From: a virus | Taxonomy: Duplodnaviria > Heunggongvirae > Uroviricota > Caudoviricetes | Strand: one strand, 5' to 3' | Length of the DNA stretch: 64,000 nucleotides | IMG/VR virus record: IMGVR_UViG_3300028146_000009 | Coordinates: 25,850-89,849 of that record | Shown here: one piece after another, positions 59,473 through 59,971 of the stretch | Layout of the letters: the number at the start of each line of letters is the position of its first letter | How positions within the stretch are numbered: the first letter of the stretch is position 1 | The notes under the pieces: model-generated | What the model was told of the DNA's origin: nothing | What the model saw: only the letters and a program-made list of their open reading frames with translations | Database searches by the model: none | Program-made: the position numbers and the translations under genes

Positions 59473-59619
59473 TTATTTCACAATCTTTAAATGTCGTCTT
59501 TTTGGCTTATTTTTATATTTTTGCGCGGCATAATAAAGTCCCCAGCAAATAAATGCAAATAGAAGGAATATATACATGCAAGCTAAAGATGTTATTAAAA
59601 GCTTATTTATTAGGGTCAT
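59473..59619 (-). CDS. 48-aa single-TM peptide (below ORF-track cut-off)
   Basis: Hand-translated MTLINKLLITSLACMYIFLLFAFICWGLYYAAQKYKNKPKRRHLKIVK. Overlaps the upstream gene's 3' end by 17 nt. Confidence 0.25.
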   Translation of the reverse strand: MTLINKLLITSLACMYIFLLFAFICWGLYYAAQKYKNKPKRRHLKIVK

Positions 59620-59971
59620 CTTCAGACCATGTACCATTTTCATTTTGAATTTCAGTTTTTATATTTTTAGGATTCATTGATTTTTCAACCAATGCTTCTA
59701 TTTTGGTTATTTCTCCAGTCCTTTTAGCAACTTCAATCCTATGCCATGCTTTAAATTTATCAGATTCACACATTTTTCTAAAAGCCGATTGTTTATTTTG
59801 TAATTGACTACGGCCATCATGGCATCGTTCCTGCGCCCCAGATGCGATATGGGTACATATAACACCACTATGGGTTTTATTCTTTTTTTGGCCGCCATTA
59901 CCAGGACCTACATAATAAGACCAATTACAATCATTACCGGTAACAGAAAATAACAATTCTCTTTTACTCAC
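59603..59971 (-). CDS. GGQ-motif peptidyl-tRNA hydrolase (ArfB/RF-1-domain-like)
   Basis: YVGPGNGGQKKNKTHSGVICTH matches the RF-1/ArfB catalytic motif (SGPGGQxVNKTxSAVRLxH). Confidence 0.6.
   Translation of the reverse strand: MSKRELLFSVTGNDCNWSYYVGPGNGGQKKNKTHSGVICTHIASGAQERCHDGRSQLQNKQSAFRKMCESDKFKAWHRIEVAKRTGEITKIEALVEKSMNPKNIKTEIQNENGTWSEDDPNK

Follow-up and report, generated by a model that had tools for sequence, protein, structure and literature searches.

The stretch of DNA analysed here, which we call the window, comprises 64,000 nucleotides (positions 25,850 to 89,849) of the IMG/VR virus record IMGVR_UViG_3300028146_000009, assigned to the Caudoviricetes. On its minus strand it carries a gene for a small protein with the GGQ-bearing RF-1 domain of peptide chain release factors, referred to below as the RF-1 gene and the RF-1 protein. 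A sequence-only reading of the window had taken this product for a phage-encoded, ArfB-like peptidyl-tRNA hydrolase. Judged from its sequence, the protein is probably a phage-specific minimal release factor in which domain 3 of a class-I release factor is joined to a short helical/hairpin module. The phage origin of the DNA was confirmed by genes for a large terminase, a portal, a major head protein and an SU10-type adaptor within the window, together with genes for HNH and GIY-YIG endonucleases.

The RF-1 gene, its domain and other GGQ factors

The open reading frame (ORF) that had been proposed as encoding a 122-residue protein was confirmed, at the coordinates originally given for it, from the ORF list and the sequence. 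The gene and its parts are as follows, in positions of the window.

59603..59971, minus strand: RF-1/GGQ gene, 122 aa, identified from the ORF list, Pfam RF-1 and PHROG 3122
59982..59986, minus strand: Shine-Dalgarno sequence AGGAG, 10 nt 5' of the GTG, read in the sequence
59693..59950, minus strand: Pfam RF-1 region, residues 8-93, with a three-stranded sheet, the GGQ loop and a helix corresponding to alpha-7 in class-I release factors
59888..59896, minus strand: GGQ catalytic motif G26 G27 Q28, codons GGC GGC CAA, read in the sequence
59606..59761, minus strand: C-terminal module specific to the family (residues 71-122), made up of two helices and, at the end, a beta-hairpin (IKTEIQNENGTW)

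The start codon is GTG (59969-59971), the last sense codon (K) occupies 59606-59608 and the stop codon is TAA (59603-59605). The GTG start is credible because the N-terminus it yields, MSKRELLFSVT, agrees with the N-termini of aligned homologs; it overlaps the end of an upstream 167-aa ORF (59964-60467) by 8 nt. A protein identical to the RF-1 protein (P0001) is present on four metagenomic contigs.

The GGQ signature on which the sequence-only reading was based, the string GPGNGGQKKNKTHSGVICTH, corresponds to residues 22-41 of the protein (nt 59849-59908), and its assignment to the RF-1 domain held up in a hidden Markov model (HMM) search. Pfam RF-1 (PF00472) was matched with 50 bits (gathering score 35, E 3.3e-13), residues 8-93 aligning to profile positions 5-88 of 116 with the GGQ loop in register, and PHROG 3122 was matched with an E of 4e-29 by residues 3-118 on profile positions 20-130 of 136. 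By these scores the similarity of the RF-1 protein to release factors is far beyond chance. In an alignment of 37 family members (alignment A1) G26 and G27 were invariant and Q28 was kept in at least 90%, and the core motifs GGQxxNKT, TH and RSQxxNK were kept family-wide around the GGQ; overall, GGQ was present in 217 of the 231 family members collected. Members with GGS or GGT at this position include P0063, P0102, P0110, P0151 and P0214 (example GGxGGSGKDTSN). The AlphaFold2 model places the GGQ loop between strands at residues 15-20 and 36-41. With only about 20 residues ahead of the GGQ loop and 94 behind it, the protein has no room for codon-recognition domains.

The RF-1 protein is nearer to domain 3 of the RF1/RF2 type, and also to PrfH and mtRF-R, and stands away from ArfB/ICT1. 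None of the NCBIfam models for known factors accepted it: the ArfB equivalog NF006718 scored 15.4 bits against a cut-off of 100, with residues 9-37 alone matching, the RF1 and RF2 models 43 bits each against cut-offs of 400 and 370, and the PrfH equivalog TIGR03072 37.1 bits against 166.65. A phmmer search of the PDB sequences gave mtRF-R as the best match (E 3.3e-7) and also matched RF1/RF2 and PrfH, and no match to ArfB/ICT1 was obtained even at an E of 10. When the family alignment was compared by hhalign with E. coli RF1 (sequence checked against the PDB), 75 columns aligned without a gap to RF1 residues 214-288 (score 91, E 7e-14, 33% identity); this span alone being covered, the earlier claim that codon-recognition domains are lacking was borne out. 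Against E. coli ArfB (sequence identical to PDB 4v95_AY) the score was 48 and the E 1e-7, the alignment ended short of the tail, and a gap of 22 residues was needed opposite the ArfB-specific insertion between strands 2 and 3. The top Foldseek matches of the RF-1 model were ribosome-bound RF2 and RF1, and ArfB/ICT1 was the most distant from the model among the GGQ structures.

The core motifs of domain 3 of RF1 and RF2 are thus kept in the RF-1 protein, but domains 1, 2 and 4 are absent and it would therefore neither read stop codons nor interact with RF3. With ArfB (YaeJ) and ICT1 (mL62) it shares a stand-alone GGQ domain without codon-recognition domains and a similar size (122 aa for the RF-1 protein, 140 aa for ArfB), and codon-independent hydrolysis in the peptidyl-transferase centre would be expected of it as of them. 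It differs from both in lacking the 22-residue subfamily insertion, and from ArfB in its C-terminal part: where the RF-1 protein is predicted to be ordered, ArfB has a flexible linker (about 12 residues) and a basic tail which is disordered off the ribosome. The positively charged tail of E. coli ArfB (residues 115-140) binds the mRNA channel and is needed for ribosome binding; deletion of 10 tail residues abolishes this binding, and the GGQ domain alone does not suffice (PMC8012679). The description of the RF-1 protein as ArfB-like therefore stands as far as a stand-alone domain without codon recognition is meant, but not for family or mechanism, given 15.4 bits against a cut-off of 100, the missing insertion and the missing basic tail. 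Dropping the label matters, since it would predict the wrong mechanism.

PrfH offers a precedent in which a GGQ factor works together with an RNA ligase where the translation machinery has been damaged (PMC9304027, PMC6514570). Its rRNA-recognition domain, which in EcPrfH is formed by residues 2-98 and 180-204 (PMC9304027), is N-terminal and absent from the RF-1 protein. Unlike in the PrfH operon, no RtcB-family RNA ligase was found beside the RF-1 gene among neighbours within about 4 kb, and the RNA-repair genes of this phage, which are of the T4 Pnkp/Rnl1 type and not of the PrfH/RtcB2 type, lie tens of kb away. The mitochondrial factor mtRF-R (C12orf65) is likewise a GGQ protein of small size that is extended by helices at its C-terminus and has no sensor for mRNA, but the C-terminal regions of the two cannot be aligned and mtRF-R has split large subunits as its target. 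Nothing resembling its partner MTRES1 was detected among the neighbouring genes of the RF-1 family loci. By sequence, the known sensors (the ArfB tail, the PrfH rRNA-recognition domain and the RF1/RF2 codon reader) are all absent from the RF-1 protein.

In their place stands the C-terminal module, which is slightly acidic where ArfB has its basic tail or PrfH its rRNA-recognition domain. The net charge of the last 30 residues is -2 in the RF-1 protein, as is the family median, versus +9 in ArfB, and a charge of +6 was reached by only 1 of 217 family members. Family members have a conserved length of about 115-135 aa with 12 invariant positions in the alignment, among them the family-specific F73 and W76 of the module (FKxWH motif); G86 is near-invariant. 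The AlphaFold2 model has a mean predicted local distance difference test score (pLDDT) of 90.7, with lower values in the GGQ loop as expected, and gives the module helices at residues 71-85 and 87-98 and strands at 107-109 and 115-117. With block-mean pLDDT of 87-98 as far as residue 120, the module is confidently predicted to be ordered. We considered whether the terminal hairpin could be a relic of release-factor domain 4, but sequence comparison gave no support for this.

Distribution of the family and its tRNA arrays

A word-indexed search gave 83 homologs of 111-162 aa, in all of which PF00472 was the sole domain. At E<=1e-30 the exhaustive profile search gave 149 clusters (50% identity), a number that rose to 1,443 at E<=1e-10; among the best 150 clusters most proteins were of 108-216 aa and nearly all covered most of the profile, typically positions 2-120. 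A family member is encoded on at least 398 IMG/VR viral contigs, which are up to 545 kb in size, and among Mycobacterium phages (Bxz1-like, cluster C) there are 206 records with homologs that are 45-50% identical across more than 90% of the length. The annotation is thus not new, as the family is already described as PHROG 3122 and, in mycobacteriophages, as RF-1 (domain) peptide chain release factor. Bxz1 gp200 is of the same family and length class as the RF-1 protein and has the same C-terminal module, but its gene lies between those for DNA polymerase and UvsX, with the tRNA region 8 kb away, in a phage of unrelated host and lineage, whereas the RF-1 gene of the window stands at the head of a small-gene block upstream of the terminase.

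Cellular genomes were searched with two narrow peptide patterns (185,579 species, one genome each). Full-length family members numbered 7, all on contigs of metagenome-assembled genomes, and the remaining matches covered the GGQ core only, as would be expected if they are ordinary cellular RF-1-domain genes. Within reach of the two patterns, the family is essentially phage-restricted. Phages are nowhere mentioned in a comparative survey of bacterial release-factor hydrolases, which covers RF1/2 together with ArfB and PrfH (PMC6514570). A survey of jumbo phages treats PTH2, tRNAs and KTSC under ribosome rescue (PMC7824862), and a term search of its text found no discussion of the RF-1 family.

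For analysis of gene surroundings, ORFs were called and clustered in 85 family loci with 8-kb flanks, of which 63 were non-redundant at 90% identity of the RF-1 protein. The tRNA genes of these loci and of two sets of control loci were as follows. The RNR control was not size-matched, and the gp32 set was added as a second control.

RF-1-centred loci (non-redundant): 63 loci, 876 kb, 413 tRNA genes, 0.47 per kb; at least one tRNA in 32 loci, at least ten in 17
gp32-centred control loci (T4-like phages): 80 loci, 899 kb, 59 tRNA genes, 0.066 per kb; at least one tRNA in 20 loci, at least ten in 0
RNR-centred control loci (mostly small contigs): 80 loci, 828 kb, 0 tRNA genes, 0 per kb; at least one tRNA in 0 loci, at least ten in 0

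The family is strongly linked to tRNA arrays. Enrichment of tRNA genes beside RF-1 family genes was about 7-fold, and the difference between RF-1 and gp32 loci was significant by Fisher's test both for loci with at least one tRNA (p = 0.0017) and for those with at least ten (p = 2e-7). Among the 63 loci a tRNA lay within 100 bp of the RF-1 gene in 11 and tRNAs were found on both sides within 2 kb in 13; 90% of the tRNAs shared the orientation of the RF-1 gene. Within tRNA-bearing loci the RF-1 gene was nearer to the tRNAs than other ORFs were: its mean normalised rank was 0.34, where 0.5 would be expected (Wilcoxon p = 0.001). This rank test is mildly biased towards the centre.

Some individual loci had further features. 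One RF-1 family gene has a phage tmRNA gene about 6 kb downstream of it (L035:14607-15026, tag ANAANDEVFALAA), and a TROVE (Ro60-like) domain protein is encoded amid tRNA genes about 3 kb upstream of another (L008:1337-2956). Both add to the genes for RNA or translation quality control that surround the family. ARAGORN reported tRNAs with a CTA anticodon, of the amber-suppressor type and labelled tRNA-Pyl, in two family loci (L013:1095-1171 and L016:6783-6857), which hints at stop-codon suppression or recoding in some RF-1-carrying phages.

Proposed function and alternatives

Bacterial ribosome rescue is believed to rely on factors that sense either that the mRNA channel is empty, as do tmRNA-SmpB, ArfA and ArfB, or that the decoding centre is damaged, as does PrfH. 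We consider it reasonably probable that the RF-1 gene product is a ribosome-dependent, codon-independent peptidyl-tRNA hydrolase which rescues stalled ribosomes and belongs to the equipment with which phages maintain translation. The domain would enter a vacant A site on the large subunit of the ribosome and place its GGQ loop in the peptidyl-transferase centre, where peptidyl-tRNA would be hydrolysed irrespective of the codon. Ribosomes stalled during infection, e.g. on degraded mRNA or where the A-site tRNA is missing or cleaved, would be freed in this way and recycled for phage protein synthesis. Because there is no basic tail to probe the mRNA channel, the choice of target would have to lie with the C-terminal module or with a partner or adaptor, or else result from the protein competing slowly for A sites that stay empty for long. 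For the same reason the protein may not be confined to non-stop complexes, and it may work on split 50S complexes as mtRF-R does.

A need for such an activity has been put forward by Iyer et al., who argue that phages must hydrolyse peptidyl-tRNA in order to free ribosomes on which cleaved tRNAs have caused a jam (PMC7824862). The phage PTH2 proteins and tRNA arrays of the same survey resemble the RF-1 family in the proposed role of clearing peptidyl-tRNA under translation attack and in the company of tRNA arrays; PTH2 differs in having an unrelated fold and in hydrolysing free peptidyl-tRNA off the ribosome, whereas a GGQ domain would be expected to need the peptidyl-transferase centre. A widespread, nearly phage-only GGQ protein which lacks a sensor, is conserved over its full length and occurs within tRNA arrays suggests that phages have their own means of recycling stalled ribosomes. 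If active during tRNA- or mRNA-targeting immunity, it would form a third arm of phage counter-defence beside replacement tRNAs and Pnkp/Rnl1 repair, and the family would, if the reading is true, offer a compact tool for codon-independent peptide release. The RF-1 gene of the window is an ordinary family member and its value is as a lead to the family. What is new here is the family architecture, distinct from those of ArfB, PrfH and mtRF-R, and the embedding in tRNA arrays, neither of which we found described in the searchable literature.

Several observations weigh against a role in rescue. Binding of the ribosome by this compact domain (net charge +5) is putative, because the GGQ domain of ArfB does not bind once its tail is removed and the RF-1 protein has no tail of that type. 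GGS or GGT replaces GGQ in about 10 of the 231 family members, which may represent a sub-clade with hydrolase chemistry altered or lost. The control loci of the tRNA comparison were not de-duplicated and came from shorter contigs. BLAST clustering of neighbour ORFs revealed no conserved protein partner, no neighbour family reaching 20% of the loci. In the phage studied here the RF-1 gene lies upstream of packaging genes and not in a translation module, and the roughly 78 kb covered (the window with 4.5 kb to its right and 9.6 kb to its left) contained neither tRNA nor tmRNA genes. No experimental study of any family member, biochemical or genetic, was found in the searchable literature.

Among other explanations, rescue on the large subunit in the style of mtRF-R/C12orf65 or of ribosome-associated quality control, in which the substrate would be a split 50S subunit with peptidyl-tRNA and not the 70S ribosome, possibly with an RNA-binding partner from host or phage, is in our view unlikely; the likeness to mtRF-R and the lack of an MTRES1-like partner have been given above. 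We think it quite unlikely that the protein manipulates translation, the alternative that the sequence-only reading had itself allowed, whether by occupying the A site or releasing host chains prematurely as a form of host shut-off, or as a non-catalytic A-site blocker. A protein with no codon or mRNA sensor could in principle target every ribosome whose A site is empty, and some members carry GGS or GGT, but the phage translates on the same ribosomes and would be hurt by indiscriminate release; the near-invariant GGQ speaks for catalysis, and co-orientation within tRNA arrays groups the RF-1 gene with genes that support translation. Dependence on an adaptor we regard as very unlikely; as with RF2 and ArfA or BrfA, the stalled state would be sensed by a small and rapidly evolving protein of the phage or the host, which would then bring in the GGQ protein. 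At four loci the start of the RF-1 gene overlaps the upstream gene, whichever is present, by 4-8 nt, which suggests translational coupling to a small upstream gene; small paralogous proteins of about 80 aa were the most frequent neighbours (13 loci), and the poor binding of the ArfB GGQ domain by itself would also favour a recruiting protein. However, the upstream genes are mutually unrelated, no neighbour family is present in as many as 20% of the loci, and KTSC was present in only 2-3 non-redundant loci.

True ArfB-type non-stop rescue, with the C-terminus inserted into an empty mRNA channel and hydrolysis on truncated mRNAs only, is highly improbable; a stand-alone GGQ domain of similar size and the weak hhalign similarity are in its favour, but it is largely refuted by the sequence. 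It can almost certainly be dismissed that the gene is a functionless, decaying fragment of a captured release-factor gene. The protein is short and corresponds to only part of a class-I release factor, but the large family, its conserved length and 12 invariant positions, the full-length profile matches and the occurrence in hundreds of distinct phages, together with a good Shine-Dalgarno sequence and an N-terminus that agrees with homologs, speak against decay, and this conservation of the family refutes the explanation for practical purposes.

A more far-reaching form of the rescue hypothesis is that the family constitutes a fifth mechanistic class of bacterial-type GGQ factor, sensor-less and phage-specific, which would clear empty-A-site ribosomes on intact mRNA (hungry codons left by anticodon nucleases or other tRNA-targeting defences) and would form a counter-defence module with tRNA arrays or with Pnkp and Rnl1. 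To our knowledge, tmRNA, ArfA and ArfB are unable to rescue an empty A site on intact mRNA unless the mRNA is first cleaved. We put the fifth class forward as a tentative and still doubtful proposal. The connection with tRNA-directed conflicts that the sequence-only reading had drawn receives indirect support from the enrichment of the family beside tRNA arrays and from the presence of Pnkp and Rnl1 in this phage.

Other genes of the phage and neighbours of the family

The window is the reverse complement of positions 4511-68510 of contig k141_126350 (ENA ERZ27256753; 89,881 bp). No near-identical relative of the locus was found among 50,697 phage records by megablast, and TerL is at most 31% identical to that of any isolate; the phage is uncultured, with a GC content of 31-38%. 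Genes which we refer to in this section are listed below.

58163-58366, minus strand: KTSC-domain protein, 76 bits
57570-58166, minus strand: HNH/EndoVII-like endonuclease, downstream of the RF-1 block
56911-57570, minus strand: calcineurin-like metallophosphoesterase, downstream of the RF-1 block
53476-54963: large terminase, TerL
50323-53475, minus strand: portal gene of P22/SU10 type (residues 53-467) with an intein, ORF of 1050 aa
36367-37155, minus strand: GIY-YIG domain ORF, 262 aa, at the edge of the structural block
28929-29798, plus strand: bifunctional Pnkp (kinase and HAD phosphatase), 113 bits
29799-30590, plus strand: PRPS-like gene, counter-defence island
30587-31321, plus strand: Macro-domain protein, counter-defence island
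31322-32683, plus strand: SPFH/Band-7 protein, counter-defence island
32680-34212, plus strand: NAMPT-family gene (PHROG 448, E 5e-193)
L332:1086-2162, outside the window (7.4-8.5 kb past its left edge): T4-type RNA ligase 1, Rnl1 (PF09511, 66 bits)

The RF-1 gene is second in a leftward block of small genes, which runs from the 167-aa ORF through the RF-1 gene, small ORFs and KTSC to the HNH endonuclease and the metallophosphoesterase. The 167-aa ORF (minus strand) is a real gene, with a full-length homolog at L171:2018-2521 (25% identity, E 5e-13) and no Pfam or PHROG match; its N-terminus (SGVFALIN...SVYINF) resembles GIY-YIG by eye only, and it was skipped by gene callers on 2 of the 3 contigs that fully cover it. 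It was rejected as an obligate partner of the RF-1 gene: the L171 homolog lies 2.5 kb from the RF-1 gene there, and the upstream genes of other close relatives are unrelated. KTSC, which is linked to ribosome rescue by Iyer et al. (PMC7824862) and lies 1.2 kb from the RF-1 gene here, was likewise rejected as a conserved partner, an iterated HMM finding it in 2 of the 63 non-redundant loci, with one further case annotated by Pfam. The top neighbour families obtained by BLAST clustering proved to be alternative-frame shadows of the RF-1 gene itself; besides the small paralogous proteins, the commonest real neighbours were metallophosphoesterases, in two clusters (10 and 8 loci, about 18 of 85), and HNH endonucleases.

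An Rnl1 gene was located on a second contig (L332), positions 9572-20870 of which are 100% identical to positions 1-11299 of the window; it lies about 37 kb from Pnkp and about 67 kb from the RF-1 gene. As Pnkp is encoded within the window and Rnl1 a short way beyond its edge, the T4-style tRNA-repair pair is present in this phage. Positions 28929-34212 of the plus strand are likely to be a counter-defence island, in which the pair of PRPS-like and NAMPT-like genes is, by composition alone, as in the published NARP1 (Adps and Namat) pathway of NAD+ reconstitution. The phage is well equipped for counter-defence, because it carries Pnkp and Rnl1, this pair and a Macro-domain gene. The RF-1 gene is in another gene block, on the opposite strand and 30 kb from Pnkp, so the earlier suggestion that it complements the Pnk gene stays conjectural. 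Within 8 kb of RF-1 family genes, Pnkp/Rnl1 genes were found at 2-3 of 62 loci versus 0 of 160 control loci, which is too weak to build a family-wide co-localisation on.

The leftward RF-1 block and a rightward block of small genes are separated by about 1 kb of AT-rich DNA that is poor in genes (60468-61520) and could be a divergent regulatory or origin region. Inverted repeats in it were weak and AT-rich only, sigma-70 promoter and terminator sites in 59300-61600 were no commoner than in shuffled sequence, and an Rfam scan of the whole window gave no match. The intein of the portal gene contains Hint, Hom_end and LAGLIDADG homing-endonuclease domains at about residues 495-765, and a free-standing homing endonuclease is the probable product of the GIY-YIG ORF. 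Counting the HNH endonuclease as well, this phage carries several mobile endonuclease elements.

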